A stretch of 64,000 bases of DNA from Escherichia coli. Its GTDB lineage: Bacteria; Pseudomonadota; Gammaproteobacteria; Enterobacterales; Enterobacteriaceae. Shown piece by piece: positions 5,991 to 44,968 of this stretch. A program made the position numbers and the translations under genes. The notes under the pieces are model-generated. The model had not been told where the DNA came from, did no database searches, and saw only the letters and a program-made list of their open reading frames with translations. Position 1 is the stretch's first letter; each line of letters begins with the position of its first letter. Where the stretch lies: NCBI RefSeq assembly GCF_048403405.1, contig NZ_CP183129.1. One strand, 5' to 3'.

Positions 5991-6015
5991 AGGAGTCAAA
6001 AGACTCCTTTGAGAC
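5991..6015 (+). terminator. Intrinsic terminator after livF
   Basis: aggagtc-aaaag-gactcct hairpin followed by ttgaga, 18 nt after the livF stop. Confidence 0.5.
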
Positions 6016-6035
6016 AGGTTACAAATGTAAAATTG

Positions 6036-6136
<101 letters not shown>

Positions 6137-6370
6137 AAACGATGAGCAATCTGTAGAGTTTGATTCAGACCTTCTATTTTTCCCGCTTATCCGTGCCCCA
6201 TCTCCCATTTTCCCTCACCCGTACCGTCACCGCCTTGTCATCTTTCTGACACCTTACTATCTTACAAATGTAACAAAAAAGTTATTTTTCTGTAATTCGA
6301 GCATGTCATGTTACCCCGCGAGCATAAAACGCGTGAATTCGCGCATTCGGTACAACAAGAGAGATAAACG

Positions 6371-7687
6371 ATGAAACCGTTACATTATACAGCTTCAGCA
6401 CTGGCGCTCGGACTGGCGTTAATGGGGAATGCACAGGCAGTGACGACCATTCCGTTCTGGCATTCTATGGAAGGGGAACTGGGTAAAGAGGTGGATTCTC
6501 TGGCCCAACGTTTTAACGCCGAAAACCCGGATTACAAAATTGTACCGACCTATAAAGGCAACTACGAACAGAATTTAAGCGCGGGGATTGCCGCATTTCG
6601 TACCGGCAACGCTCCGGCTATTTTGCAGGTTTATGAAGTTGGCACCGCCACCATGATGGCGTCGAAAGCCATTAAACCGGTGTATGACGTGTTTAAAGAG
6701 GCGGGGATTCAGTTCGATGAGTCGCAGTTTGTGCCGACGGTTTCAGGCTATTACTCCGACAGCAAAACCGGCCACTTACTCTCCCAGCCGTTCAACAGCT
6801 CGACTCCTGTTCTCTATTACAACAAAGACGCCTTCAAGAAAGCGGGGTTAGACCCGGAACAGCCGCCGAAAACCTGGCAGGATCTGGCGGACTATGCCGC
6901 GAAACTGAAAGCCTCCGGTATGAAGTGCGGCTACGCCAGCGGCTGGCAGGGCTGGATCCAACTGGAAAACTTTAGCGCCTGGAACGGTCTGCCGTTTGCC
7001 AGCAAAAACAACGGCTTTGACGGCACAGACGCGGTGCTGGAGTTCAACAAGCCGGAGCAGGTGAAACACATCGCTATGCTCGAAGAGATGAACAAGAAGG
7101 GCGATTTCAGCTACGTCGGGCGTAAGGATGAATCCACTGAGAAGTTCTATAACGGTGATTGCGCGATGACCACCGCCTCTTCCGGTTCTCTCGCCAACAT
7201 TCGCGAGTACGCCAAATTTAACTACGGCGTAGGCATGATGCCTTACGACGCCGATGCGAAAGATGCGCCACAAAACGCCATTATCGGCGGAGCCAGCTTG
7301 TGGGTAATGCAGGGTAAAGATAAAGAAACTTATACGGGTGTGGCGAAGTTCCTCGACTTCCTCGCGAAGCCAGAAAACGCTGCCGAGTGGCATCAGAAAA
7401 CTGGTTATCTGCCAATCACCAAAGCGGCGTATGACCTGACCCGTGAGCAGGGTTTTTATGAGAAAAACCCAGGGGCGGATACCGCGACGCGTCAGATGCT
7501 GAATAAGCCGCCGTTACCGTTCACCAAAGGGCTGCGTCTGGGTAACATGCCGCAGATCCGCGTGATTGTGGATGAAGAGCTGGAGAGCGTGTGGACCGGT
7601 AAGAAGACACCACAGCAGGCACTGGATACCGCCGTTGAGCGTGGGAACCAGTTACTGCGCCGCTTTGAGCAGTCTACGAAGTCTTAA
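6371..7687 (+). CDS. ugpB: sn-glycerol-3-phosphate ABC transporter periplasmic binding protein UgpB
   Basis: 438 aa with signal peptide [23 protein letters not shown]; first gene of the ugpBAECQ order. Confidence 0.93.
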
Positions 7688-13698: not shown

Positions 13699-13726
13699 GC
13701 GGCCCTCTTCGTGGGAAGAGGGCCGT
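13699..13726. terminator. Bidirectional terminator hairpin between convergent ggt and yrhB
   Basis: ggccctcttc-gtgg-gaagagggcc perfect hairpin. Confidence 0.5.
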
Positions 13727-13730
13727 ATTG

Positions 13731-14015
13731 TCAGGGCAAGCCGAAGGTAGCCTTTTTTATTTCATAATCCTGTAGATATTCTTCCAGCGGCTTTGCCGTT
13801 CCCAGAGAATGAATTTCACCACTATCTTTATCAATAATAAAAGGTGCGTTACCAGCTAAGCGCGCGGCCTCATCTCCAGATTCAAGAAATTCTTGTGATT
13901 CGAAACAGAAATACCAGCCCTGGCTAAAACGTCCATGCAGAGTGATGACGACAGGGAGATCTGCATCATCAAGGTAATGGTTCGCTTTCGCGAATGCGTC
14001 GTGATAAGTAATCAT
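13731..14015 (-). CDS. yrhB: YrhB (94 aa small protein)
   Basis: ORF track 94 aa MITYHDAFAKANHYLDDADLPVVITLHGRF...; matches recalled YrhB and its position beside ggt. Confidence 0.75.
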   Translation of the reverse strand: MITYHDAFAKANHYLDDADLPVVITLHGRFSQGWYFCFESQEFLESGDEAARLAGNAPFIIDKDSGEIHSLGTAKPLEEYLQDYEIKKATFGLP

Positions 14016-14464
14016 AATTATAATAAATATTATTGTTGATCGTTATATTATTATTCTTGCGTTATACTTTGAGAAAAGACGCGTTCATCTTCGTCAAAGA
14101 TATTATTAAATGCTGGTTTTGAAAAAAGTTCATCGGATAATATACAGTCACGAAATAAGTATCTGCTAATATTTTGTGATTTCTTTTTCAGAACGTCGAA
14201 CGGGATTTTCTTATTTAAGATATCAGAATCTTATGATTCGGGTGAAATTCTAACTAAATCAACATGTCACTAAAATCATCATAGCCATTAGCTATTTCGG
14301 CTAAAATAGAGATTACATGTCTTCGGTCCATCTCACTTAAGGAGTGTAGTTCCGTTGTAAGTTTTTCCATAGCTTGCATTGCTAAGTTTCGAACAAGGAA
14401 TTTTCTGCTGGTAATCTCTAAAAAGATGGCATGGTTTACAATGATTTTTGTTACCTTTTGATTA

Positions 14465-14959
14465 TTATGAACAACTGTCCATGATTTCGTTTAAGAATGA
14501 AGAGAAATCACTAAACGAACTGAATATATTTTCGGTGCCAATATTATCTCTAATTTCAAAAAAGTTACTTTTAATGTCATAAGTAAATATTGAAATGCTA
14601 TCATCCCCGATCACTAACCGTTCTTGTAGATCAGGGTTTATGAAATCATCATTATTTCTATAAAATTCATTTACGGCAAAAAGGTTTTTAACTGAAGGTT
14701 CTGGAATCGAGAGGCTAAATAATCGTAATCCATTAGCTTCGAATCCATCCATTGCTCTTAAAAAAGTAAGATAATCAGGTTGATTCTTAAAAAAAATACT
14801 AACTTCATTACATAACTTCTCCAGGCAATTAGTTGAATTAGAATTAAATTCTATTTGGATTATACTTTCAATAAATGATTCCTTAAGCGGTGCTTCAAAT
14901 GGATAGTCTAAATCATTCATCATTTTTTTTAATTTATTTATTTGGGTCTTAGTCATCAT
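14465..14959 (-). CDS. Putative immunity protein for the upstream Hcp-nuclease effector (164 aa; likely intact equivalent of K-12 yrhA)
   Basis: Start ATG overlaps the stop of the upstream toxin ORF by 4 nt (ATGA); acidic, AT-rich; no recognisable catalytic motif. Immunity role inferred from context. Confidence 0.6.
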   Translation of the reverse strand: MMTKTQINKLKKMMNDLDYPFEAPLKESFIESIIQIEFNSNSTNCLEKLCNEVSIFFKNQPDYLTFLRAMDGFEANGLRLFSLSIPEPSVKNLFAVNEFYRNNDDFINPDLQERLVIGDDSISIFTYDIKSNFFEIRDNIGTENIFSSFSDFSSFLNEIMDSCS

Positions 14960-16134
14960 TTTGTGGGTTCCATAATATTTTTCATGGGAGGATAAATTGA
15001 GCCAGATGGAATGGCCCAGTGAGTGATTTTGCTTTCACCTACTAATATTCCCTTAGCTATTCGTGATTGCATGTTAGTAAAAACTTTATGATATGGTTCG
15101 TTTTCGATTAATACTAAATTTTCGAAATCGTTAGCACCACCATCATCTAGAGATAGTTTATGGTGAACATTATAATTTAGAGGAACATTGCCCTTTCTCA
15201 TTCTTAAAAGGTCTTCGGCGTTGAATCTTTCAGATGCTTCGGAGGTTTTTGCAAGTTTGATAAGAAAATTTTTTCTTACAGTTTTATTAAACTCCTTTCG
15301 TAAGTTAGCTAAGTCTTTTGAAGGTCTCTTAATGTATATTATTTCTATTATGTCTATACCATCAAGAAGTTTTTGTTGACCTCTAAGTTTGCCTAAGTAA
15401 CTATTTATTTCTGTATATGTATCAACATTAGAACGCTTTGTTAAAAGAATAGATGCTGTTGCTATCGCTATGCCCGCTGTTTTTTCATTTAGTATTTGAT
15501 CATAGCCTTTTATTGCATCTCCACCCAGTTTTTCCGCAGTATCTCTGAATCCTTCAATGTTCCCATTGTATACGCCACCAGCAGCAAGTAGCCTGCCAAT
15601 AGCTTTGCTGTTTAACGCTTTTAAACCATTATTTGTTTGGTTTTTTGAATTTGGTAAAACCAAACGGTTATAATTTTCAGGGAGTGCCAAATAGCTGAAC
15701 TCGGTATTTGCGATAAGATGTTGACAGAGGATAAATTCATAACTAACAGTTATTGTTTCTGTATCCAGTTGATTTTGAATGATCTGATGATGAATAGCCG
15801 ATAAAAAAGCGCCTCTTAGTTGTATATAATAATACTTTTCCCATCTACCAAATCTATTGATTCTATAAAAGTCAAATTCCATAAATAATTGCTCATTATT
15901 GTTAATGGAATTAATAAGTAATGGAGTGCTTTTATCAATTAATTTACAAAATGTCATACCCTGTAACTGTGAACCAAGTCCCGTATTAGTAATTCTATTT
16001 GCGAGTGAGAATGTAAATATTTCATCCTCATGCCCACTCTGCCAGCGATTACCTATAGATTCAGTAGTCCCACAACCTGCGGAGATGTTTCCTTGTTGTT
16101 CTCCCGTTACTGTCAGGTAAACAATATTACTCAT
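14956..16134 (-). CDS. yhhZ: Hcp-domain protein fused to a C-terminal HNH-type nuclease toxin domain (T6SS Hcp-effector, 392 aa)
   Basis: N-terminus is Hcp-like (MSNIVYLTVTGEQQGN...KLIDKSTPLL); C-terminus has NYNVHHKLSLDDGGANDFENLVLIENEPYH (HNH/colicin-DNase-like His motif); AT-rich. Confidence 0.75.
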   Translation of the reverse strand: MSNIVYLTVTGEQQGNISAGCGTTESIGNRWQSGHEDEIFTFSLANRITNTGLGSQLQGMTFCKLIDKSTPLLINSINNNEQLFMEFDFYRINRFGRWEKYYYIQLRGAFLSAIHHQIIQNQLDTETITVSYEFILCQHLIANTEFSYLALPENYNRLVLPNSKNQTNNGLKALNSKAIGRLLAAGGVYNGNIEGFRDTAEKLGGDAIKGYDQILNEKTAGIAIATASILLTKRSNVDTYTEINSYLGKLRGQQKLLDGIDIIEIIYIKRPSKDLANLRKEFNKTVRKNFLIKLAKTSEASERFNAEDLLRMRKGNVPLNYNVHHKLSLDDGGANDFENLVLIENEPYHKVFTNMQSRIAKGILVGESKITHWAIPSGSIYPPMKNIMEPTK

Positions 16135-16369
16135 CCATGAAAAGTCCTTTTATGGCATGCTATTTTATCAATGGAACTATTATGCTTGTTAATTGTTATT
16201 TATTTACTCCAGGAAATTGTAGGCGTATATATTAAAAAATAAAATATTACACTTTAGGACGTAATCATGAGGTAAATCTTATATATTTATTGGGAAAATA
16301 AATACATTAAAGGAAGGTATGCCGATTTTGAATGACACCCTTTTTCCATCTCAGAAAAAGGGCACTATC

Positions 16370-16858
16370 TTACTTCACCCGCGCCATATAATACGCATCG
16401 ACATATTCACCATTACGTAATGCGTACTTCTTGCCAGTCCCTTCAATCTCAAATCCAAATTTTTTATAGACCTTAATTGCTGGCGCGTTATCGATGAACA
16501 CCGTTAGCTCAATACGATCTACCCGCAACCAGTTGTCGCACATTTCAATCATCTCTCGCATCAGGGCGCTGGCGACGCCGCGATTCTTCCAACGGGAGTC
16601 GACACAAATACCAAAATCTGCAACATGACTGCGGCGTGGGCGCTGTTGCACGTCAATGGTGAGATGGCCCACGACGTCTCCATCAATACAGGCGACGAGT
16701 TGCTTGATGCCGGGGCGATCGGCGAGTCGCTCCTGCCACATATGATCGGAGGGATGAGGCACCTGTAGCGTGTTGCAATACACCTCCGGCTGGGCGTGAA
16801 TCTGCCTGATGGCCTCGTAATCCCGTGTTTCTGCGTGGCGTATCACTATCTCACTCAT
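16370..16858 (-). CDS. yhhY: GNAT N-acetyltransferase YhhY (162 aa)
   Basis: ORF 16370..16936; start taken at MSEIVIRHAETRDYEAIRQIH (16858); GNAT motif RWKNRGVASALM. Confidence 0.85.
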   Translation of the reverse strand: MSEIVIRHAETRDYEAIRQIHAQPEVYCNTLQVPHPSDHMWQERLADRPGIKQLVACIDGDVVGHLTIDVQQRPRRSHVADFGICVDSRWKNRGVASALMREMIEMCDNWLRVDRIELTVFIDNAPAIKVYKKFGFEIEGTGKKYALRNGEYVDAYYMARVK

Positions 16859-16979: not shown

Positions 16980-17069
16980 GCGATCAGGAAGACCCTCGCG
17001 GAGAACCTGAAAGCACGACATTGCTCACATTGCTTCCAGTATTACTTAGCCAGCCGGGTGCTGGCTTTT
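16980..17069 (+). ncRNA. ryhB: RyhB small RNA (Fur-repressed, iron-sparing regulator)
   Basis: gcgatcaggaagaccctcgcggagaacctgaaagcacgacattgctcacattgcttccagtattacttagccagccgggtgctggctttt matches recalled RyhB; ends in a GC hairpin plus U-run; lies between yhhY and yhhX. Confidence 0.9.
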
Positions 17070-17190
17070 TTTTGATCTTTCGTTTTCAATTTATCCACGG
17101 GAAGTGCTTGTGTTCGTTATGCGCACTCCAGTAGGAACCACGTCCGCTTTGCGCTAAGGTGTAAATAATCACCTTAAAAAGGACGAAATC

Positions 17191-22412: not shown

Positions 22413-24512
22413 ATGATGGAGAAACACGGAGCTGAATTGCTTTTACAGCGGATGTTAGGAAATACCACCGCTACTTTCAGGGAAGGGCAATGGGAAGCCA
22501 TAGATGCAGTGGTTAATCAGCGGCGAAAACTGCTGGTTGTACAGCGCACCGGCTGGGGGAAAAGTGCCGTGTACTTCATCGCCAGTAAAATCTTCCGAGA
22601 TCGCGGCGCTGGCCCGACAATTATCATCTCTCCTTTGCTTGCCCTGATGCGTAACCAGGTTGCCGCCGCTGAACGGTTAGGTATTACGGCTGAAACGTTG
22701 AATTCTACAAACAGGGAAGAATGGCAGCGCATTAGCGATAAGTTGCTGCAAGGTGAGGTCGATTGCTTGCTGGTTTCCCCGGAACGTTTGGCAAACCAGG
22801 ACTTTATCGAAACGGTTTTGTATCCTATAGCCGATCGTATTGGCTTGCTTGTTGTCGACGAGGCGCACTGCATCTCTGATTGGGGCCACGATTTTCGCCC
22901 GGATTACCGACGTATATTAGATATTTTGCGCCAACTGCCTGCGAATACCCCTGTTCTGGGTACAACCGCGACAGCGAATAACCGTGTTGTTGAGGATATC
23001 CGTCAGCAATTGGGTGACATTGTGATTCAGCGTGGAACGCTGGCTCGCGAAAGTTTGGCGCTTGATGCCTTAGTCTTAGGAGAACAGTCATCCCGTCTGG
23101 CATGGTTAGCAACGGTTATCCCTCAGTTTTCCAAATCGGGAATTGTTTATACCCTGACGACTCGCGATGCTGAACTTGTCGCCGAGTGGTTAAGGAAAAA
23201 TGGTATCAGTGCATTTGCTTACTACAGCGGCGTGACTTGTGAAGGCGCGGAAGATTCTAATACTGCCAGGGAATATCTGGAGCAGGCACTGCTGGCAAAT
23301 AAAATCAAAGTGCTGGTCGCGACGACGGCATTAGGTATGGGGTTTGATAAACCTGATTTAGGTTTCGTCATTCATTATCAGATGCCGGGGTCTATTGTCG
23401 GTTACTACCAACAGGTGGGGCGTGCCGGGCGTGCTATAGATTCCGCAGTTGGCATATTGCTTTGTGGTGGTGAAGACCGCGCTATTCATCAATTCTTCCG
23501 TGAAAGCGCCTTTCCTGCGGAGGCGCAAATTCATGAAATACTCAACGTACTTAGCGAGAATGACGGTCTTACCCTACGAGGCATTGAACAACGGACGAAT
23601 CTTCGTTATGGGCAAATAGAAAAAGCACTGAAATTATTGGTAGCGGAAAATCCATCGCCTGTGGTGTATACCGAGAAATTATGGCGCAGAACTATCGTCA
23701 GTTTTTCTCCTGATCATGAACGAATTAACCATTTGATGAATCAGAGAAAAAGTGAGCTGGCAGACGTTGAAAGCTATATCACGACCAAGGAGTGCAAAAT
23801 GCAATTTCTGCGCCGTGCACTCGATGAGCCAAGTGCCGAACGTTGTGGTAAATGTAGTAGTTGTCTTCAGCATCCGTTATTGTCGCCCGACATTGATAGC
23901 GGCTTACTCCATGCGGCAAATTTATTTATTAAACACGCTGACCTGCCGTTAAATCTCAATAAACAGGTGGCAGCTGGGGCTTTTACGCAATACGGATTTA
24001 AAGGGAACTTGCCTGCGGGTTTACAAGGATCTACGGGGCGAATCCTTTCTCGTTGGGGAGATTCCGGGTGGGGAAAGCAGGTAGCACAGGAGAAAAAAAC
24101 GGGGCGCTTCAGTGATGAGCTGGTAGAAGCATGTGCGGAAATGGTTCGCCAACGCTGGAATCCGCATCCTGAACCAACCTGGGTATGCTGCGTTCCTTCA
24201 TTAAGACACCTCGACCTGGTTCCTGATTTTGCCCGGCGACTGGCGGCGAAACTTGGCTTACCTTTTATTGATGCCATTGAAAAAGTCGTGGACAATCCAC
24301 CGCAGAAAATGCAGCAAAACCGTTTTCACCAGTGTCAAAATCTCGACGGGGCGTTTGTGATTACCCCTCCTTTGATGCCAGGTCCGGCGTTGCTGGTTGA
24401 CGATATCGTGGATTCTGCATGGACGCTGACAGTTCTGACAGCACTGTTACGCCAGGCAGGTTGCCCGACGGTTTATCCTCTTGCCCTTGCTTCTACCTCG
24501 GTAAAAAATTGA
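22413..24512 (+). CDS. RecQ-family DNA helicase with C-terminal PRTase-like extension (699 aa); candidate toxin/effector of a PsyrTA/RqlHI-like module
   Basis: Motif 0 FREGQWEAI, Walker A TGWGKS, DEAH box VVDEAHCISDWGHDFRPDY, LGTTATA, HYQMPGSIVGYYQQVGRAGR; Zn-binding Cys cluster CKMQFLRRALDEPSAERCGKCSSC; C-terminal LLVDDIVDSAWTLTVL resembles a degenerate PRPP-binding loop. RBS GAGGGAGAAG before ATG. Not present at this locus in K-12. Confidence 0.85.
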   Translation: MMEKHGAELLLQRMLGNTTATFREGQWEAIDAVVNQRRKLLVVQRTGWGKSAVYFIASKIFRDRGAGPTIIISPLLALMRNQVAAAERLGITAETLNSTNREEWQRISDKLLQGEVDCLLVSPERLANQDFIETVLYPIADRIGLLVVDEAHCISDWGHDFRPDYRRILDILRQLPANTPVLGTTATANNRVVEDIRQQLGDIVIQRGTLARESLALDALVLGEQSSRLAWLATVIPQFSKSGIVYTLTTRDAELVAEWLRKNGISAFAYYSGVTCEGAEDSNTAREYLEQALLANKIKVLVATTALGMGFDKPDLGFVIHYQMPGSIVGYYQQVGRAGRAIDSAVGILLCGGEDRAIHQFFRESAFPAEAQIHEILNVLSENDGLTLRGIEQRTNLRYGQIEKALKLLVAENPSPVVYTEKLWRRTIVSFSPDHERINHLMNQRKSELADVESYITTKECKMQFLRRALDEPSAERCGKCSSCLQHPLLSPDIDSGLLHAANLFIKHADLPLNLNKQVAAGAFTQYGFKGNLPAGLQGSTGRILSRWGDSGWGKQVAQEKKTGRFSDELVEACAEMVRQRWNPHPEPTWVCCVPSLRHLDLVPDFARRLAAKLGLPFIDAIEKVVDNPPQKMQQNRFHQCQNLDGAFVITPPLMPGPALLVDDIVDSAWTLTVLTALLRQAGCPTVYPLALASTSVKN

Positions 24513-25714
24513 TGAATCTTTCAGCCAATGCACAAGCAACCCTCCTGCTAACCAGCGATTTTTCTCGCGCGGCGGCGAGTGAGTATAAACCTCTTAGTAA
24601 TAGTGAATGGGGGAAGTTTGCATTATGGCTGAAGCACCAACGTATCAGTCCCGCCGATCTTCTGGTGCCGCAACCGCAAGAGAAACTTACAGGCTGGAGC
24701 GATCCGCGTATTTCTCAGGAGCGTATTCTTGGCTTGCTGGCGCGTGGTCATAGTCTGGCGTTGGCGGTAGATAAGTGGCAACGCGCCGGATTATGGATCT
24801 TAACCCGCGGAGATGCCGATTATCCCGTTCGCTTGAAAAACCGATTGCGAACGGATGCTCCTCCCGTTTTATTTGGCTGCGGGAATAAAGCATTATTGCA
24901 AGCGGAAGGTATGGCGATTGTTGGCTCGCGAGATGCTCCGACTGCCGATTTGCGCTATACCCAACAACTGGCAGCGAAACTGGCCCAACAGGGGATTTGC
25001 GTTATCTCTGGTGGTGCGCGAGGTATTGATGAATGTGCAATGGCGTCGGCACTGGAGGCCGGGGGAACTGCCGTTGGCGTATTAGCTGATAGTTTGTTAA
25101 AAACAAGCACGTTAGTGAAATGGCGTAAAGGGCTTATAGCAGGCAACCTGGTGTTGATTTCACCGTTTTACCCAGAGGTACGTTTCACTGTCGGCAATGC
25201 GATGGCGCGGAATAAATATATTTATTGCCTTGCTGAAAGCGCAATGGTTGTACGTGCGGGAATGACCGGTGGAACGATAACCGGAGCGATGGAGGCGTTA
25301 AAACATCAGTGGCTGCCTGTTCTGGTTAAACCAAATCAGGATGTGCAATCAGCCAATTCACGTTTAGTAGAAAATGGGGCGTCATGGAGTGCTGAACAGG
25401 CTGAGAATGTGACGATCAGACTGCCAGATGTTCCTGGGCTGATGTATGACAGAGCACTCCGTAACGCTCAACCAGAATTGTTTTCGCTGCACGAAGATGA
25501 CGCAAATTACGCAGTAATGCCCGCGCATACCCCTGTCGATTTTTATCAACTCTTTGTGGCGGAACTGGCGATCCTTGCAAAGGAATCGATAAGTATTGAA
25601 AGGCTGGCGTCTTGTACTGGTTTAACCATCGAACAAATTAGTGTGTGGCTGAACCGCGCAGAAGAAGAGGGAAGGGTTATCCGATTGGGCGAAGGTCATT
25701 ATCAGTTCAGGTAA
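24512..25714 (+). CDS. DprA/Smf-like (SLOG-superfamily) protein (400 aa); candidate antitoxin/partner
   Basis: ORF 24419..25714; ATG at 24512 (MNLSANAQ...) overlaps the helicase TGA by 1 nt. DprA hallmarks: DADYPVRLKNRLRTDAPPVLFGCGNKALL, Rossmann segment IVGSRDAPT...ISGGARGIDECAM, C-terminal winged-helix-like region. Confidence 0.85.
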   Translation: MNLSANAQATLLLTSDFSRAAASEYKPLSNSEWGKFALWLKHQRISPADLLVPQPQEKLTGWSDPRISQERILGLLARGHSLALAVDKWQRAGLWILTRGDADYPVRLKNRLRTDAPPVLFGCGNKALLQAEGMAIVGSRDAPTADLRYTQQLAAKLAQQGICVISGGARGIDECAMASALEAGGTAVGVLADSLLKTSTLVKWRKGLIAGNLVLISPFYPEVRFTVGNAMARNKYIYCLAESAMVVRAGMTGGTITGAMEALKHQWLPVLVKPNQDVQSANSRLVENGASWSAEQAENVTIRLPDVPGLMYDRALRNAQPELFSLHEDDANYAVMPAHTPVDFYQLFVAELAILAKESISIERLASCTGLTIEQISVWLNRAEEEGRVIRLGEGHYQFR

Positions 25715-37773: not shown

Positions 37774-38478
37774 ATGAAATTCAATCTATCTAATTTATCC
37801 GCAGTTTTACTCGCATCAGGTATGCTGATGTCAACTGCGGTAACCGCTGCGCCAGGCGATGCATCACAATTTGGTGGTGCGGATACAGACTGGAGCACCG
37901 TTGATTATCCAAAACTCACCGATATGGATAGCAACACCGATGCGATGGGCGGAAACATCCGCTTTACTGGTCGTGTGGTTAAAGCGACGTGTAAGGTTGC
38001 TACAGAATCGAAACAGATTGAAGTGGTACTGCCAGTCGTACCTTCTAACGCTTTCACGGGCATTGATACCGAAGCAACGGGTGCCAGTAACCAGACTGAC
38101 TTCAACATTAAATTGACTGATTGTAGCAATACGGACAGTCAAAATATTGAATTTCGTTTTACTGGCGTAGCAGACGGTGCCAACCAGACGCTTGCCAATG
38201 AAGTGGAAGGAGCTGCTGATGCTGATGGTACTGGCGAAGCGGGAGCTACGGGTGTAGGGATTCGTATTTATTCTAAAAACACGACAACTGATGGCCTGAT
38301 TAAGCTGAACACACAAACTCCCCAGGGGAGTAGTTCTTCAGCAGCCTACGTGATTCCTGGCGATGCAGCCACTCATGATTTTACTGCGGCATTTACCGCG
38401 GGCTATGCTCAGAACGGTAGTACCGTTGCACCAGGTCTGGTGAAATCAACGGCAAGTTTCGTCGTGCTGTACGAATAA
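37774..38478 (+). CDS. Fimbrial major subunit (chaperone-usher pilin, 234 aa)
   Basis: Signal peptide MKFNLSNLSAVLLASGMLMSTAVTAA; conserved Cys pair; C-terminal SFVVLYE resembles a pilin donor-strand-acceptor terminus; RBS aaggaaagg. Confidence 0.8.
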   Translation: MKFNLSNLSAVLLASGMLMSTAVTAAPGDASQFGGADTDWSTVDYPKLTDMDSNTDAMGGNIRFTGRVVKATCKVATESKQIEVVLPVVPSNAFTGIDTEATGASNQTDFNIKLTDCSNTDSQNIEFRFTGVADGANQTLANEVEGAADADGTGEAGATGVGIRIYSKNTTTDGLIKLNTQTPQGSSSSAAYVIPGDAATHDFTAAFTAGYAQNGSTVAPGLVKSTASFVVLYE

Positions 38479-38598
38479 TTACAGCAAGATAATTTCAGGT
38501 TACAGTTACTTGTAACCTGAAATTAATATTACATGTTTATTTGTAATAAATAGACATGCATCAGTAATTACAATTAATTTCATCTACAAGGATGCAGT

Positions 38599-39351
38599 AT
38601 GAGATGGATTTCAAAAAATAAATGTTTTTCGAATAGAAACATTAATTCTTTGCTGAAGACCCAATATATCATAAGGGCCGGTGCTCTATTTTTACTATCC
38701 GCCATATCTATCAATGCTATTGCTGCGGGTGGCTTCGGTCTTGGTTCTACGCGTCTGGTTTATCCATCTGACAGTCAGCAAATTACGCTAAGTGTACAGA
38801 ATGGTGGGGCTAACACCAGCTATTTAATCCAGTCATGGATTGATGACAATCAAAGCAGTAAAAAAAGTCAGGATTTTGTGGTTACGCCTCCTTTATTTAT
38901 GTTACCAACGCGAAAAGAAGCCTCATTGAGGATAATGTTTATTGGTAAATCACAGTTACCGACTGATCGCGAAACATTATTCTGGATGAATGTGAAAGCG
39001 ATTCCGCCAACGGATGAGAAGAATACCCAGAAAAACACGTTACAACTGGCGTTACAAAACAGAATTAAATTATTTTACCGTCCGACTAATTTACCCGTTC
39101 AAGCTGGTAAAGCACGGGATATGCTGCGATTTAAATACGAAGGTAAACAGCTAAGAGTCATTAACCCTTCTCCCTATTATCTGACGGTGACTGGAATCAG
39201 GGTGCAAGGGGCAAAATTACCCAATGCGTTTGTTCCACCGAAAAGTGACGTAACAGTGTCTTCACCAGTGATGCTAGCCGGTGAAATTACTTATCAAACT
39301 ATCAATGATTACGGTGCCACAACGGCCAGGCAAAAGGGAACGATGCAATAA
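38599..39351 (+). CDS. Periplasmic fimbrial chaperone (PapD-like)
   Basis: 250 aa; conserved chaperone segments LGSTRLVYPSDSQ and NRIKLFYRP. Confidence 0.85.
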   Translation: MRWISKNKCFSNRNINSLLKTQYIIRAGALFLLSAISINAIAAGGFGLGSTRLVYPSDSQQITLSVQNGGANTSYLIQSWIDDNQSSKKSQDFVVTPPLFMLPTRKEASLRIMFIGKSQLPTDRETLFWMNVKAIPPTDEKNTQKNTLQLALQNRIKLFYRPTNLPVQAGKARDMLRFKYEGKQLRVINPSPYYLTVTGIRVQGAKLPNAFVPPKSDVTVSSPVMLAGEITYQTINDYGATTARQKGTMQ

Positions 39352-39392
39352 ACCTGGAAGATTAAAACGTTAAAGCAACTCAGGTCAGGGAT

Positions 39393-41984
39393 ATGAACCT
39401 AAAGCTCAGAAAACTCGAACACAGGATGGCAAGGCAGAAGCAGATGAGGCGGTGTATGCTGCTTCTACTGACACTTTTGCCTGCGTGTTCAGTGGCGGGT
39501 ATGCGCTTTAACCCTGCATTCCTGTCGGGTGATACAGAAGCTGTTGCTGATTTATCTCGTTTTGAGAAAGGGATGACATATCTACCTGGTAGTTATGAGG
39601 TTGAAATATGGGTCAATGATTCGCCTTTGACATCACGTAAGGTTACTTTCAAAGCTGATGAGCAGAATCAGTTGATCCCCTGTTTTTCGCTCGATGAGTT
39701 AGTTACTTTAGGAATTAACAAAAGTGCATTGCCGGAACAGGCGCAAGCAGAGGGAAATAATTGTCTCGATTTACGTATATGGTTCGCAGAAGTTCAATAC
39801 ACTCCTGAACTGGATGCGCAACGACTCAAACTGACCTTTCCGCAGGCAATATTAAAGCATGAAGCCCGTGGTTATATTCCACCTGAGGAATGGGATAATG
39901 GTATCCCGGCCATTCTTATTAATTATGATTTTTCTGGCAACAGTGATCGTGGAGACTATGCGTCTGATAGTTATTATTTAAATCTCCGTTCAGGTTTAAA
40001 TTTAGGGGCGTGGCGTTTTCGTGATTATTCTACATGGAGTCGTTCAGGTAATTCACCGGGTAAAATTGCACATGTGAGTAGTACGTTACAACGAGTAATT
40101 ATTCCTTTTAAAAGTGAATTAACACTAGGTGATACCTGGTCTTCATCGGATGTTTTCGACAGTGTGAGTATTCGTGGTGCTAAACTTGAATCCGATGAAA
40201 ACATGCTACCCGATAGCCAAAGTGGTTTTGCCCCCACTGTGCGCGGTATTGCTAAAAGCAATGCTCAGGTAACGATCAAACAAAATGGCTATGTTATTTA
40301 TCAGACATATACTCCACCGGGACCCTTTGAAATCAACGATCTGAACCCTACGTCTTCCGCTGGGGATTTGGAAGTTACGATCAAAGAGTCTGATAATTCC
40401 GAAACTATCTATACCATTCCTTACGCCGCTGTTCCCATTCTTCAACGCGAAGGGCATATTAAATATTCGGCAACTGCCGGTAAATATCGTAGCAATAGCT
40501 ATAATCAAAACAGTCCGAATGTCTTTCAAGGAGATTTGATTTGGGGGTTACCCTGGGATATTACCGCCTACGGAGGGATGCAATACTCAAATAATTATCG
40601 GGCAATAGCACTCGGGCTTGGGTTCAACCTTGGTATGTTTGGTGCGACGTCATTTGATTTAACGCAAGCCAATAGCACGCTTGCCGATGGCAGTAAACAT
40701 CAAGGGCAATCGTACCGTTTCCTATATTCAAAATCGTTAGTGCAGACAGGTACGGCTTTTCAGATTATTGGTTATCGCTATTCGACGGAGGGATTTTATT
40801 CGTTGAGTGATACCACATACAAACAAATGTCGGGTACGGTTATCGATCCAGATACCCTTAATGAAAAAGACTATGTTTATAACTGGAATGATTTTTATAA
40901 TTTACGTTATAACAAAAGAGGAAAGTTTCAGGCAAATATATCGCAACCATTGGGCGAATATGGCTCTATGTATTTGGCGGCAAGTCAACAAACTTACTGG
41001 AATACGAATAATAAAGATACCTTGTATCAGGTCGGCTATAATACGAGTGTACATGGGATTTATTTAAATATTGCTTATAATTATAGTAAGTCACCAGGTT
41101 CAGATGCGGACAGAATCTTATCCGTAAATGTCTCATTGCCGATCAGCAATTGGTTATCACCAGCTGTCGATGGGCGTACTGCGACAAATTCTATGACAGC
41201 AACTTATGGTTATAGTCAGGATAATAGCGGTCATGTAAATCAGTATGCCGGAGTATCTGGATCGCTGCTGGAACAACATAATCTCAACTATAATATTCAA
41301 CAAAATTTTGCCAACCAGAATAATGGCGAAAATGGCTCGGTAGGGATAAATTACCGTGGTACATATGGTTCACTAAATTCTGGATACAGCTACGATAATA
41401 ATGGTAACCAGCAATTTAACTATGGTTTAAGTGGTGCCCTGGTTATTCACGAAAATGGTCTCACGTTAAGCCAGCCGTTAGGAGAAACAAATATACTGAT
41501 AAAAGCACCTGGGGCAAACAATGTAAATGTGGAACGCGGAACGGGGGTTAAAACAGACTGGCGTGGCTATGCTGTCGTACCTTATGCCACGGAATATCGG
41601 CGTAATAATATCTCTTTAGACCCTATGTCTATGAGTATGCATACAGAATTAGATGCTACTACTATGGAAGTGATACCCAGCAAAGGTGCTTTAGTTCGTG
41701 CTGAGTTTAATGCACATGTCGGTATTCGAGGTTTATTTAATGTTCATTATCGTAATAAACCAGTTCCATTTGGTGCGACGGTCAGTGTACCCACTGAGGG
41801 GACAACTCAGATTACAGGAATAGTGGGTGACAGTGGACAGGTTTATCTCTCCGGTTTGCCTTTACAAGGCATAATAAATATACAGTGGGGAGAAAGTTCT
41901 TATCAGCAATGTCGGGCAAACTATCAATTACCGGAAAGTGAGTTGGATAATGCCATTAGCTATGCAAATCTGGAGTGCCGCTAA
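39393..41984 (+). CDS. Outer membrane fimbrial usher protein
   Basis: 863 aa; N-terminal FNPAFL usher motif; beta-rich, size typical of ushers. The exact start within the first ~35 codons is uncertain. Confidence 0.88.
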   Translation: MNLKLRKLEHRMARQKQMRRCMLLLLTLLPACSVAGMRFNPAFLSGDTEAVADLSRFEKGMTYLPGSYEVEIWVNDSPLTSRKVTFKADEQNQLIPCFSLDELVTLGINKSALPEQAQAEGNNCLDLRIWFAEVQYTPELDAQRLKLTFPQAILKHEARGYIPPEEWDNGIPAILINYDFSGNSDRGDYASDSYYLNLRSGLNLGAWRFRDYSTWSRSGNSPGKIAHVSSTLQRVIIPFKSELTLGDTWSSSDVFDSVSIRGAKLESDENMLPDSQSGFAPTVRGIAKSNAQVTIKQNGYVIYQTYTPPGPFEINDLNPTSSAGDLEVTIKESDNSETIYTIPYAAVPILQREGHIKYSATAGKYRSNSYNQNSPNVFQGDLIWGLPWDITAYGGMQYSNNYRAIALGLGFNLGMFGATSFDLTQANSTLADGSKHQGQSYRFLYSKSLVQTGTAFQIIGYRYSTEGFYSLSDTTYKQMSGTVIDPDTLNEKDYVYNWNDFYNLRYNKRGKFQANISQPLGEYGSMYLAASQQTYWNTNNKDTLYQVGYNTSVHGIYLNIAYNYSKSPGSDADRILSVNVSLPISNWLSPAVDGRTATNSMTATYGYSQDNSGHVNQYAGVSGSLLEQHNLNYNIQQNFANQNNGENGSVGINYRGTYGSLNSGYSYDNNGNQQFNYGLSGALVIHENGLTLSQPLGETNILIKAPGANNVNVERGTGVKTDWRGYAVVPYATEYRRNNISLDPMSMSMHTELDATTMEVIPSKGALVRAEFNAHVGIRGLFNVHYRNKPVPFGATVSVPTEGTTQITGIVGDSGQVYLSGLPLQGIINIQWGESSYQQCRANYQLPESELDNAISYANLECR

Positions 41985-42547
41985 TGAATATATTACAAAA
42001 ATTTATTCTATTAATGTTTAGATCATTGTTCATGATGGTGATTTCATATAACGCACTGGCTAACGATACTGTAGTGGTCACATTTACAGGACAATTATTA
42101 GCGAAAACGTGTGATATTACAACTGGAAGTAAAGACCAGCCAGTAAACATGGGAACTTATGACGTCAATGATTTTTTGAATGTAGGGGATGTTTCTGGCA
42201 GCCATACATTTACGATCAATCTGGAAGGATGTCCTACAACAACCAGTACTGTTTATAGTTCAGGAGTAAGTGCTAATGTGCAGTTTACCGGGGATGCTGA
42301 TGCTATAAATACCACTTTATTACGCCTTACTTCCAGCGCGGATAGTGCAACTGGAGTGGGCATCGAAATTTTAGACAGTAATGATAAAATTATAGCAATT
42401 AATAGTGAATCAGGATTCAAAGAGTTAATTTTAAATAATAATGGCGATGCCAGTTTAACCTTTAAACTCCGCTATAAGTCAACTCAGCAAAACGTACATG
42501 CGGGACAGGCGAACGCACTATTGTACTTTGATATAGACTATCAGTGA
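41984..42547 (+). CDS. Fimbrial minor subunit
   Basis: ORF 41975..42547 begins at GTG; ATG at 41984 overlaps the usher stop and gives signal peptide MNILQKFILLMFRSLFMMVISYNALA; pilin-like Cys pair. Confidence 0.78.
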   Translation: MNILQKFILLMFRSLFMMVISYNALANDTVVVTFTGQLLAKTCDITTGSKDQPVNMGTYDVNDFLNVGDVSGSHTFTINLEGCPTTTSTVYSSGVSANVQFTGDADAINTTLLRLTSSADSATGVGIEILDSNDKIIAINSESGFKELILNNNGDASLTFKLRYKSTQQNVHAGQANALLYFDIDYQ

Positions 42548-42554
42548 GGTTAAT

Positions 42555-43079
42555 ATGACACGATATTGGAATTTAATTGCCCTATTATTCTCTGTGATAT
42601 CTATGTCATCCATTGCTGATGATACAACGCATGCAGGTGTTGTACGCATCGAAGGAATTATAACAGCAAAGACTTGTATTGTTGCCGATGAGTCTAAAAA
42701 TTTCACAGTTAACATGCCTGATGTTCCCAGTTATACGGTGAGAAATTCAGGGAGTGTTACTGAAAAAATTGGCTTCTCTTTAAAGTTAACCCGTTGTGGC
42801 AGTGATGTCAGTAATGCCAATGTCACGTTTGATGGAATACCAGTTAGTGAAGACGCAGCCCTATATAAACTGGAAGAGGGCTCAGTCGATGGGTTAGCAC
42901 TGGCTATTTTTGATAACAACAGACAAAGTATTAGTAATGGTATAAAGAGTACAAGTTATGCCCTTACACCATTGGTAGATAATACATTGCATTTCTTTGC
43001 TGCTTATAAAGCTATAAAAAATGATGTACAACCAGGAGATGCGAATGCATCAGTTTCCTTTATCGTCACTTATGATTAA
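42555..43079 (+). CDS. Fimbrial minor subunit
   Basis: 174 aa with signal peptide MTRYWNLIALLFSVISMSSIA; pilin-like C-terminus SFIVTYD. Confidence 0.78.
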   Translation: MTRYWNLIALLFSVISMSSIADDTTHAGVVRIEGIITAKTCIVADESKNFTVNMPDVPSYTVRNSGSVTEKIGFSLKLTRCGSDVSNANVTFDGIPVSEDAALYKLEEGSVDGLALAIFDNNRQSISNGIKSTSYALTPLVDNTLHFFAAYKAIKNDVQPGDANASVSFIVTYD

Positions 43080-43824
43080 CGTGCTGATATGCATTTTAAT
43101 ATGTTGCACAAATGCGCAGGCAGGAGTTGTTGTTGGCGGTACTCGTTTTGTTTACCCAGAAAAGCAGTCATCAATTTCGGTCGAGCTTAAAAATACTGCC
43201 AGTAAAGATATGCTGGTTAAAATTTCCGTGACACCTGATGATGGACGTCAGTTAAAAGGGACACTGGAATCCCAGCCTTTACTTCCAGATAAGGCGTTTA
43301 TTGCCACACCACCATTATTGGTACTTAAACAAGATAAAAATACCAAAATAAGAATCAATCGCGTGGGGGGGCAGTTACCTATAGATCGTGAGAGTTTATT
43401 TATACTGAATATTGCAGCGTTACCTGCTCAGGAACAAAACTCACAGCTTAAGAATGAAAATCAACTCCAGGTGGCTGTACGTAATAGGATGAAAATATTT
43501 TACCGCCCAGAGACGTTATCAGGTAATCCACTTGACGCTTATCAACAGTTACGCTGGTCGCGAAACAATGAAGCTGTCACCGTTTTTAACCCTACGCCCT
43601 GGTATGTGACACTCTATAATTTATCTATTGATGGTAAAAGCATAAATGGTGGCATGGTTGCACCATTTAGTCATCGCCAACAGGATTGGTGTCAGCGGCA
43701 AGGATATTGTGAGATTAACTGGCAAACACTAGATCTTTACAATAATGCCTTACCCGTATGGAGCGTAAAATTAAATGTTTTACAAAATAATGCTATTATG
43801 GGTGCAGTAGCGATACATGGATAA
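43045..43824 (+). CDS. Second periplasmic fimbrial chaperone (PapD-like)
   Basis: ORF 43021..43824; ATG at 43045 follows AGGAGA and gives MHQFPLSSLMINVLICILICCTNAQA; motifs GGTRFVYPEKQ and NRMKIFYRP. Confidence 0.82.
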   Translation: MHQFPLSSLMINVLICILICCTNAQAGVVVGGTRFVYPEKQSSISVELKNTASKDMLVKISVTPDDGRQLKGTLESQPLLPDKAFIATPPLLVLKQDKNTKIRINRVGGQLPIDRESLFILNIAALPAQEQNSQLKNENQLQVAVRNRMKIFYRPETLSGNPLDAYQQLRWSRNNEAVTVFNPTPWYVTLYNLSIDGKSINGGMVAPFSHRQQDWCQRQGYCEINWQTLDLYNNALPVWSVKLNVLQNNAIMGAVAIHG

Positions 43825-43834
43825 CTGGAGAAGC

Positions 43835-44968
43835 ATGATGCTTACTTATTTTTGGGGGAATATAAAAGCAATTTGTATATTGTTTGTTCTTTTAGTCAGT
43901 AGCTGCTATAACATAGTATATGCTGAAGATATGGGACGGGATCGCGCCTTTTGTTATCCTGGTGCACCAGGTAATAATACTACTCCTGCGACATTTTCTT
44001 ATAATTTTGGTACGGTAATTGTCTCAGATGTTAATAATAATTCGCCTGGGACAGTATTACCCTCGCAGGACTGGAAAATAGGGCATTATAAGGCTTATTG
44101 TAATTCTCTGGATGATTATGAGGTTTATTTTTCTGGTGTTTCTGGGATTGATCCGTCAGGAGCGTCTGGTGATCATCAGGGGAGCGATATATTTATTCCT
44201 TTGACTCATGAAATATCTGTCTCGACACATGTAAAGCTCTATAATAAAAATGGCACAATGACAGATAAGGCAGTACCTTTTGACAACTATAGCACCAATT
44301 ATCCAGCAGACAGAAGTAAACCATCAAGTTGGGCCTCAGGAACAGAAGGTTATATAAAAATCAGACTTGATAAAAAAATAATATCCGATATCTCAATAAA
44401 TAACGTATTGCTGGTTTCTTTGTATGTCAGCCAGTTTCCAACAGAGCACGGACCAATTCCAGTATTTAATGCTTATATTGGCAACTTAAATATTGAAGTT
44501 CCACAAGGTTGCACAATTAATGAGGGAACTAGTTTTACCGTTAATATGCCGGATGTCTGGGCCAGCGAATTAAGTCGGGCTGGTGCTGGAGTAAAACCAA
44601 CAGGTATTTCTCCAGTGGCAACCACTATTCCGATAAATTGTACGAACAAAGATATTGATGCCGTAATGACGCTGGTTTTCGATGGCAATATTTCATCAAC
44701 GAGAGATGTTAATGGTCGGCAAAGCATTATTCAGGCGGAGGATAACCCCGACGTTGGCATTATGATTATGGATAGCCAACAGGAATCCGTAGACTTAAAT
44801 GCATTGGCTGCGCATGTTGGTGTGCCATTTAAGTTAGTTGAAAACCAGGCTGAGTCAGCTCAGACGGCAGATGTGACTTTTCTGTCTCTCCCTGTAAGTA
44901 CCACAGGGCGACGCCCTGCTGCAGGCCGTTATAATGCCCTGGCTGTTTTGCGGGTGGAATACCAATGA
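43835..44968 (+). CDS. Putative fimbrial tip adhesin (two-domain pilin-like, about 377 aa)
   Basis: ORF 43817..44968; start likely MMLTYFWGNIKAICILFVLLVSS at 43835; size and terminal position fit a lectin-plus-pilin adhesin. Start uncertain by up to 6 codons. Confidence 0.7.
   Translation: MMLTYFWGNIKAICILFVLLVSSCYNIVYAEDMGRDRAFCYPGAPGNNTTPATFSYNFGTVIVSDVNNNSPGTVLPSQDWKIGHYKAYCNSLDDYEVYFSGVSGIDPSGASGDHQGSDIFIPLTHEISVSTHVKLYNKNGTMTDKAVPFDNYSTNYPADRSKPSSWASGTEGYIKIRLDKKIISDISINNVLLVSLYVSQFPTEHGPIPVFNAYIGNLNIEVPQGCTINEGTSFTVNMPDVWASELSRAGAGVKPTGISPVATTIPINCTNKDIDAVMTLVFDGNISSTRDVNGRQSIIQAEDNPDVGIMIMDSQQESVDLNALAAHVGVPFKLVENQAESAQTADVTFLSLPVSTTGRRPAAGRYNALAVLRVEYQ

Follow-up and report, generated by a model that had tools for sequence, protein, structure and literature searches.

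An intact yhhZ–yrhA pair in Escherichia coli, a probable Hcp-borne nuclease effector and its immunity gene

An intact but rare allele of yhhZ–yrhA

Here we describe two overlapping open reading frames (ORFs) on the minus strand of a 64,000-nucleotide stretch of Escherichia coli DNA (contig NZ_CP183129.1; the whole stretch is called the window). The locus is the E. coli yhhZ–yrhA pair itself, which is already known, and the window carries an intact but rare allele of it. Our analysis makes it probable that the pair encodes a 'specialised' (evolved) Hcp DNase effector with its immunity protein, YhhZ being borne on the tube of a type VI secretion system (T6SS) encoded at aspV and fired by it, and YrhA protecting the producer and its kin. 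An earlier note, made from the sequence alone, had proposed an orphan effector of this kind with a coupled immunity gene. That interpretation is supported, yet it is not new: since what is taken to be the orthologous pair was characterised experimentally before, as Hcp-ET1/ETi1, the finding is correct but not novel. The label 'yhhZ-like' used in the note gave the right relationship and was too weak only in that the locus is not merely similar to yhhZ–yrhA.

The ORF list and the sequence confirmed that a 392-amino acid (aa) ORF is followed by an acidic 164-aa ORF. The junction between them reads ACAAAATGATGACT, and the yrhA ATG therefore overlaps the yhhZ TGA stop as ATGA. At the local base composition, an open frame of 392 codons would arise with P ~7e-15 and one of 164 codons with P ~1e-6, so neither ORF is random. 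Both ORFs are intact and retain every family-invariant residue. The isoelectric point (pI) of YrhA is 4.3, as against 9.6 for the basic C-terminal 149 residues of YhhZ. The block is AT-rich relative to its neighbours, as had been noticed before: GC content is 0.30–0.36 over ~13800–16400 and 0.50–0.58 in the flanks, with values of 0.320 for the island (14016–16369), 0.342 for yhhZ, 0.289 for yrhA and 0.505 for the whole window. The island is bordered by ggt on one side and by yhhY on the other, and a promoter and terminator scan across it gave no signal above shuffled expectation.

E. coli strain 4621, isolated from blood in Houston, gave the best match and is 99.996 % identical over the whole window. 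The RefSeq gene order in this strain is ggt, yrhB, yrhD (pseudogene), yrhA, tssD (the RefSeq name of yhhZ), yhhY, yhhX, yhhW and gntRKU.

YhhZ joins an Hcp domain to a predicted HNH nuclease domain

The N-terminus of YhhZ is Hcp-like, as the earlier note had it. Residues 1 to ~150 match NCBIfam TIGR03344 with E=2.4e-36 and 125 bits, against a curated TssD cut-off of 58.9, and Pfam T6SS_HCP (PF05638) with an E of 2e-12; a search of the PDB matched the solved structure of Hcp3 at 1.6e-12. YhhZ combines three of the features that mark Hcp-ET or 'evolved Hcp' effectors, namely an Hcp N-terminus, a C-terminal toxin extension and a downstream immunity gene. For a further one, T6SS-dependent secretion and killing, the evidence is indirect and consists of the T6SS cluster of near-identical strain 4621 and the secondary sources on orthologues, both described below. 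The architecture was named 'evolved Hcp' by Blondel et al. in 2009 (PMC2907695).

The HNH/colicin-DNase-like motif that had been read from the sequence lies at residues 324–349 (HHKLSLDDGGANDFENLVLIENEPYH), and a domain search of the C-terminal region, which the earlier note had suggested, placed it in an HNH polymorphic-toxin domain of residues ~244–392. When YhhZ residues 174–392 were searched against 1.84 billion cluster representatives (E<=1e-3), 627 clusters matched, mostly over residues ~244–383 only, and the aligned part lay at the very C-terminal end of proteins 170–1542 aa long. Pfam scans of 38 carriers found LXG (5), PT-TG (5), PAAR-like, MuF_C, WXG100, LysM and Hcp domains at the N-terminus and an HNH match in all 38 at E<=0.1 (in five at E<=1e-3). 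Because the toxin domain is C-terminal behind such varied N-terminal domains, it bears the signature of polymorphic toxins.

The positions that are invariant in three alignments (A1, A3 and A4) include H324, H325, G333, N335, N339, L342, H349 and Q356, and no change of HH, N or H occurs in 38–42 diverse homologues, down to ~25 % identity. A profile of the family matched Cas8f-HNH (1.9e-4), pyocin AP41 (2e-4), colicin E7 (2.2e-4), pyocin S2 (7e-4) and colicin E2 (2e-3), and the alignment extends over the helical region that precedes the HNH core. The AlphaFold2 (AF2) model is confident for residues 245–385, with a predicted local distance difference test score (pLDDT) of 89–98 that exceeds 94 in the ββα-Me core. 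In the model, a strand at 321–325 that ends in HH, a second strand at 340–344 and a helix at 345–360 with H349 form a ββα-metal finger, with the catalytic His at the end of β1, the structural Asn and the metal-binding His of the helix in the places that mark a His-Me finger. YhhZ was made the type of group 32 of the His-Me fingers, with 543 bacterial members (Jablonska et al. 2017, PMC5714182). Conservation and modelling together predict that the YhhZ C-terminus is a colicin/pyocin-like HNH (ββα-Me) nuclease domain.

Two points weigh against an active nuclease, and thus against an effector. With the single YhhZ sequence the Pfam match is weak (HNH, E=0.013; Col-Pyo_DNase, 0.63), and the HNH motif was called 'degenerate' by Blondel et al. 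(PMC2907695). They could be taken to mean that the domain is catalytically inactive and serves another use, such as binding of DNA or protein, and that the pair is not a toxin and its immunity protein; the tolerance of K-12 for yhhZ without a whole yrhA would fit this view. We regard it as very improbable. The invariant catalytic residues argue against a dead HNH domain, as do the well-modelled core, the structural matches of the toxin domain, which are active HNH toxins (Rhs2-CT, colicin E7/E9 and EsaD), and the immunity-type gene that always adjoins it, in the window as in Citrobacter and Enterobacter. From the alignments, the 'degenerate' label appears to reflect the weak single-sequence Pfam score and not the loss of catalytic residues.

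Between the Hcp and HNH domains lies a module rich in Gly and Ala with the sequence NSKAAGRLLAAGGVYNGN...TAG.AIA.ASILL, which we call the pre-toxin module. Its invariant block, NSK..GRLLAAGG.YN.N..FR..E.LGG.A..GY.Q..N..T.G, was found in the alignments and the cluster search only in the closest relatives, those fused to Hcp or to DUF8093. AF2 models the region of residues ~175–243 as helices with pLDDT 70–88.

YrhA is a putative SUKH-fold immunity protein that travels with the toxin domain

YrhA matches the NCBIfam YrhA family, NF038335, at 4.5e-37. No Pfam family, SMI1_KNR4/SUKH included, matched it at E<=0.001, and a sequence search of the PDB returned nothing meaningful; some UniRef entries label members of its cluster SMI1/KNR4. 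Only comparison of folds identified YrhA as SUKH. An AF2 model built from 24 homologues (pLDDT 83; predicted template modelling score, pTM, 0.81) has the α+β fold of SUKH proteins, and the best nine Foldseek matches in the PDB were all SUKH, among them yeast Knr4, Bacteroides BF1740, YobK, PSPTO_5518 and Syd, with probabilities of 0.63–1.0 and template modelling (TM) scores of ~0.5. The match to Bacillus subtilis YobK (2prv) had a probability of 0.99. SUKH proteins are an immunity family defined against nucleic-acid-degrading toxins (Zhang et al. 2011, PMC3113570); the paper names neither YrhA nor YhhZ.

The gene neighbourhood points the same way. Like yrhA in the window, its homologues in Citrobacter and Enterobacter directly adjoin a nuclease-toxin gene. 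In Citrobacter koseri, an Hcp-HNH protein (73 % identity) is followed by a YrhA homologue (68 % identity) at the same yhhY/ggt site, without yrhD or yrhB. In Enterobacter roggenkampii, the toxin module lies at another chromosomal site (6001–7663 of the comparison locus), behind DUF8093 (PF26362) and again followed by a YrhA homologue (62 % identity). The Hcp-joined version of the cassette occurs in Escherichia and Citrobacter, and a version with pre-toxin module, HNH domain and YrhA on the ~165-aa DUF8093 instead of Hcp occurs in Enterobacter, Leclercia, Pantoea, Erwinia, Franconibacter and Serratia. DUF8093 was considered as a divergent Hcp and ruled out at the sequence level (hhalign probability 0.14 %). 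This co-inheritance of toxin and YrhA where their context changes is the best in silico support for a toxin–immunity relation, and with the modelled fold it supports YrhA as a SUKH-fold cognate immunity protein and putative neutraliser of YhhZ. The downstream gene had been taken for an immunity gene in the earlier note, and the predicted fold and its travel with the toxin domain across genera bear this out.

The toxin cassette may also be wider than the HNH domain, in that the conserved 70-residue module (residues ~175–243) always accompanies HNH and YrhA, joined to Hcp or to DUF8093. One could speculate, at rather long odds, that this module serves specifically in entry or packaging (inner-membrane crossing or fit into the tube lumen, for example) and that DUF8093 is an unrecognised delivery domain for the T6SS or another route.

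Relation to Hcp-ET1/ETi1 and other known systems

Hcp-ET1, from STEC004, O104:H4 C227-11 and enteroaggregative E. coli (EAEC) 55989, is described as an orphan Hcp-HNH DNase that inhibits competitors in a T6SS2-dependent manner and is neutralised by ETi1, encoded directly downstream (Ma et al. 2017, as cited in PMC6730261, PMC6099711 and bioRxiv 10.1101/2024.03.05.583533). The 55989 pair lies at the same locus, and its toxin and immunity proteins are 94 % and 98 % identical to those of the window. A yhhZ–yrhAB island was reported in the O104:H4 outbreak strain (PMC3309015). From these secondary sources, the 55989 locus, the near-universal single copy of the block and the O104:H4 island, we conclude with high, though incomplete, confidence that Hcp-ET1/ETi1 and YhhZ/YrhA are orthologous pairs. 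As those sources present them, the two share an orphan Hcp with an HNH DNase and an immunity gene immediately downstream; they differ in that the window allele is rarer and its activity is a prediction. Toxicity as a DNase, its neutralisation by ETi1 and delivery through T6SS2 would thus be carried over from literature on presumed orthologues that are 94–98 % identical; metal-dependent nuclease activity is likewise reported for Hcp-ET1 in secondary sources.

In K-12, YhhZ (b3442) has the same site (yhhY / yhhZ-yrhA-yrhD-yrhB / ggt), the same length, 94 % aa identity and an ATGA-type overlap; MG1655 annotates it as 'putative endonuclease YhhZ'. The 23 aa substitutions between the two proteins include 18 in the Hcp domain and linker (residues 16–175). 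The K-12 pair differs in its yrhA (b3443), a pseudogene split after nucleotide 390 by the insertion sequence (IS) IS1E; the statement in the earlier note that IS1 interrupts this gene in K-12 is correct, and yrhA is intact in the window. K-12 also differs in having no T6SS (PMC6730261) and a full yrhD, which is truncated in the window.

Other nuclease toxins are set apart by their carriers and immunity proteins. The DNases colicin E7/E9 and pyocin S2/AP41 are attached to receptor-binding and translocation domains, in contrast to the Hcp fusion and T6SS of YhhZ; toxin identity is ~20–25 %, and their immunity proteins have the four-helix Im7/Im9 fold, as against the SUKH fold of YrhA. The HNH toxin Rhs2-CT of Serratia marcescens, with RhsI2, also uses a T6SS, but in an Rhs/PAAR cage carrier and with another immunity family. 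The YobL–YobK pairs of Firmicutes (LXG toxin and SUKH protein; PMC3113570) resemble YhhZ–YrhA in that the YrhA model fits YobK and homologues of the toxin domain occur on LXG and WXG100 proteins. They differ in their delivery by the type VII secretion system (T7SS) of Gram-positive bacteria, and YrhA lacks the Pfam SMI1_KNR4 sequence match.

For the window as such, the weight of these results is limited. The pair is named and widespread in E. coli, descriptions of its architecture date from 2009 and 2017, and orthologues have, according to the secondary sources, been tested as a T6SS DNase effector and its immunity protein. The gain lies in annotation: the RefSeq name 'tube protein TssD' conceals a toxin and yrhA is merely 'protein YrhA', and our analysis gives YrhA a predicted SUKH immunity fold and places yrhB in the Imm35 family.

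A T6SS cluster in near-identical strain 4621 and the proposed mechanism

The earlier note had seen no T6SS structural genes in the window, and none are annotated over the full 64 kb in near-identical strain 4621. It had also proposed looking for T6SS clusters in the rest of the genome. In strain 4621, the metV site has no T6SS, just a phosphotransferase system (PTS) island, and the aspV site, ~3.7 Mb from the yhhZ locus, has a complete T6SS cluster. This cluster comprises tssB, tssC, tssE, tssF, tssG, tagH, tssJ, tssK, icmH/tssL, tssH, vasI, tssA and tssM, together with a VasL-domain gene, two hcp genes, vgrG and an Rhs core protein. The Hcp that ends the cluster is 36 % identical to the YhhZ Hcp domain (E 2e-32), and the vgrG-adjacent Hcp is 26 % identical. 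Rhs elements are a trait of the E. coli T6SS2 clusters (review, PMC6730261).

We propose that YhhZ would be built, through its Hcp domain, into the Hcp tube of a T6SS whose genes lie elsewhere, which in strain 4621 is the Rhs-carrying aspV cluster. Contraction of the sheath would drive the tube and the attached toxin into a neighbouring bacterium, where the colicin/pyocin-like HNH (ββα-metal) domain would cut DNA. YrhA, made from the same transcript and translationally coupled through ATGA, would bind and block the basic nuclease domain, and the producer and its kin would be shielded by this acidic SUKH-fold protein. Expression and delivery of this allele in the strain are our deduction. With an intact pair, and with near-identical strain 4621 having a complete T6SS, the strain probably has a working interbacterial weapon, which could influence gut competition for a bloodstream-type isolate.

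A role that does not involve a T6SS would also account for part of the data. The pair could be an intracellular module of toxin-antitoxin-like addiction or of stress or defence, or could use another release route, the Hcp domain being a mere scaffold. In Enterobacter, Leclercia, Pantoea and Erwinia, the toxin and YrhA occur behind DUF8093, a domain in which no similarity to Hcp was detected; the locus is distant from any T6SS genes; and Blondel et al. 2009 (PMC2907695) proposed that YhhZ is unconnected to T6SS function. This explanation seems improbable to us: the score of the Hcp domain far exceeds the curated cut-off for TssD, relatives of the toxin domain sit overwhelmingly on secretion or trafficking domains (LXG, PAAR-like, PT-TG and MuF), and the secondary sources describe T6SS2-dependent delivery of Hcp-ET1. 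Nor did PADLOC match a defence system, with no family at E<=0.001 for YhhZ, YrhA or YrhB.

Distribution and evolution of the island

The block 13700–16400 was compared by megablast, at the sensitivity of that program, with 5,426 complete E. coli genomes. Of these, 4,092 carry the block, in every case on the chromosome, and 3,757 (about 70 %) cover it to >=80 %. More than 99 % of carriers have a single copy (4106 places in 4092 genomes). The window allele is rare, as only 9 of the 4092 genomes are >=99 % identical over the island.

This allele was compared with the K-12/55989 allele for the ratio of nonsynonymous to synonymous substitution rates (dN/dS), which for the island rests on just 36 nucleotide differences. 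The ratio is ~0.6 for yhhZ (dS 0.045) and ~0.3 for yrhA (dS 0.03), as against 0.015–0.024 for the flanking yhhY and ggt, whose dS values of 0.22 and 0.25, respectively, are about five-fold above those of the island. The low dS of the island relative to its flanks suggests that it was exchanged between E. coli lineages more recently than the flanks diverged, as far as can be judged from substitution counts.

Several observations weigh against a delivered effector, in addition to the weak Pfam score and the 'degenerate' label discussed above. Hcp-ET1 is equated with YhhZ on the strength of the single-copy state, the 55989 locus and secondary sources on Ma et al. 2017 (Virulence 8:1189). The AF2 model is of low confidence across the Hcp part of YhhZ, despite which its best Foldseek matches are Hcp structures. 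The aspV cluster was compared with T6SS2 for its Rhs content only. K-12, without a T6SS, retains an intact yhhZ next to a disrupted yrhA, and the toxin must therefore be silent or not self-toxic in K-12. In other strains the block has been hit by IS1 or IS3, or removed, either cleanly or through IS1-mediated deletion. Finally, the high dN/dS of yhhZ fits arms-race selection and relaxed constraint alike.

Such observations could be read to mean that the island was acquired horizontally, is transcriptionally silenced, and persists as a harmless, decaying relic that most E. coli, including this strain, do not use as a weapon. A GC content of 32 % in a window of 50 % would agree with this, as would the whole yhhZ of K-12, the insertions and block deletions elsewhere, the dN/dS of ~0.6 and the shortened yrhD of the window. 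We nevertheless consider a relic unlikely, given that both ORFs are whole with all family-invariant residues present, that ~70 % of complete E. coli genomes keep the pair, as does Citrobacter koseri at the same site, that near-identical strain 4621 has a complete T6SS, and that secondary sources describe the orthologue as active in competition assays. A T6SS effector with its immunity protein remains the preferred reading of yhhZ–yrhA.

Neighbouring features

The features of the locus and of the island edge are given in Table 1.

Table 1. Position of the yhhZ–yrhA pair, the domains of YhhZ and the adjoining genes in the window
Feature	Coordinates	Strand	Basis
yhhZ (RefSeq name tssD), putative Hcp-ET1-type specialised T6SS effector, 392 aa	14956..16134	-	ORF list; RefSeq strain 4621; 94 % aa identity to K-12 YhhZ and the 55989 orthologue
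yrhA, putative cognate immunity gene (ETi1-type, predicted SUKH/Smi1-Knr4 fold), 164 aa, pI 4.3	14465..14959	-	NF038335, AF2, Foldseek, adjacency
N-terminal Hcp/TssD tube-protein domain of YhhZ, residues 1 to ~150	15685..16134	-	TIGR03344, PF05638, PDB Hcp3, Foldseek
YhhZ linker and Gly/Ala-rich helical 'pre-toxin' module, residues ~151-243 (conserved from ~175)	15406..15684	-	alignments, AF2
Predicted C-terminal HNH / ββα-Me nuclease toxin domain of YhhZ, residues ~244-392; H324, H325, N335/N339, H349	14959..15405	-	
yrhD remnant, 37 codons (K-12: 51 aa), within the AT-rich island	14254..14370	-	sequence; RefSeq incomplete pseudogene in strain 4621
yrhB, Imm35-family protein, 94 aa, pI 4.6, island edge	13731..14015	-	Pfam Imm35

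YrhB matches Pfam Imm35 (PF15567) over its full length, 1–85 of 85, with E=1.4e-22. Imm35 has been linked to papain-like Tox-PL1 toxins (Zhang et al. 2012, PMC3482391). No ORF for a toxin of the Tox-PL1 type adjoins yrhB, only the yrhD remnant lying between yrhB and yrhA, and yrhB is retained beside yhhY in strains without yhhZ-yrhA-yrhD. As no cognate toxin adjoins it, yrhB, at the island edge, is probably an orphan immunity gene of the Imm35 family, judging by its family match and surroundings. The K-12 annotation of yrhB is 'putative heat shock chaperone'. The yrhD gene is whole in 55989, as it is in K-12. A 'methionine to cysteine' role given to yhhZ–yrhAB in PMC3309015 was rejected as a mis-annotation that stems from a name clash with B. 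subtilis yrhA/yrhB.

Other features of the window lie outside the island. The small RNA RyhB (Rfam RF00057, 83 bits) is encoded at 17009–17073 on the plus strand, between yhhY and yhhX as in K-12. A PsyrTA pair, a known toxin-antitoxin/defence pair, lies at 22413–25714 (plus strand) and consists of a RecQ-like helicase (699 aa) and, overlapping it, a DprA-like protein (431 aa); PADLOC matched PsyrT with E=0 (1068 bits) and PsyrA with 2e-201. The insertion separates gntU from yhgN, between which K-12 and 55989 have an empty site. By the annotation of strain 4621, glgP and glpD flank a chaperone-usher fimbrial operon of seven genes at ~37774–44968 (plus strand). The sole structural difference from that strain is an IS1 upstream of livK in strain 4621 (1–894), where positions 1–900 of the window differ.

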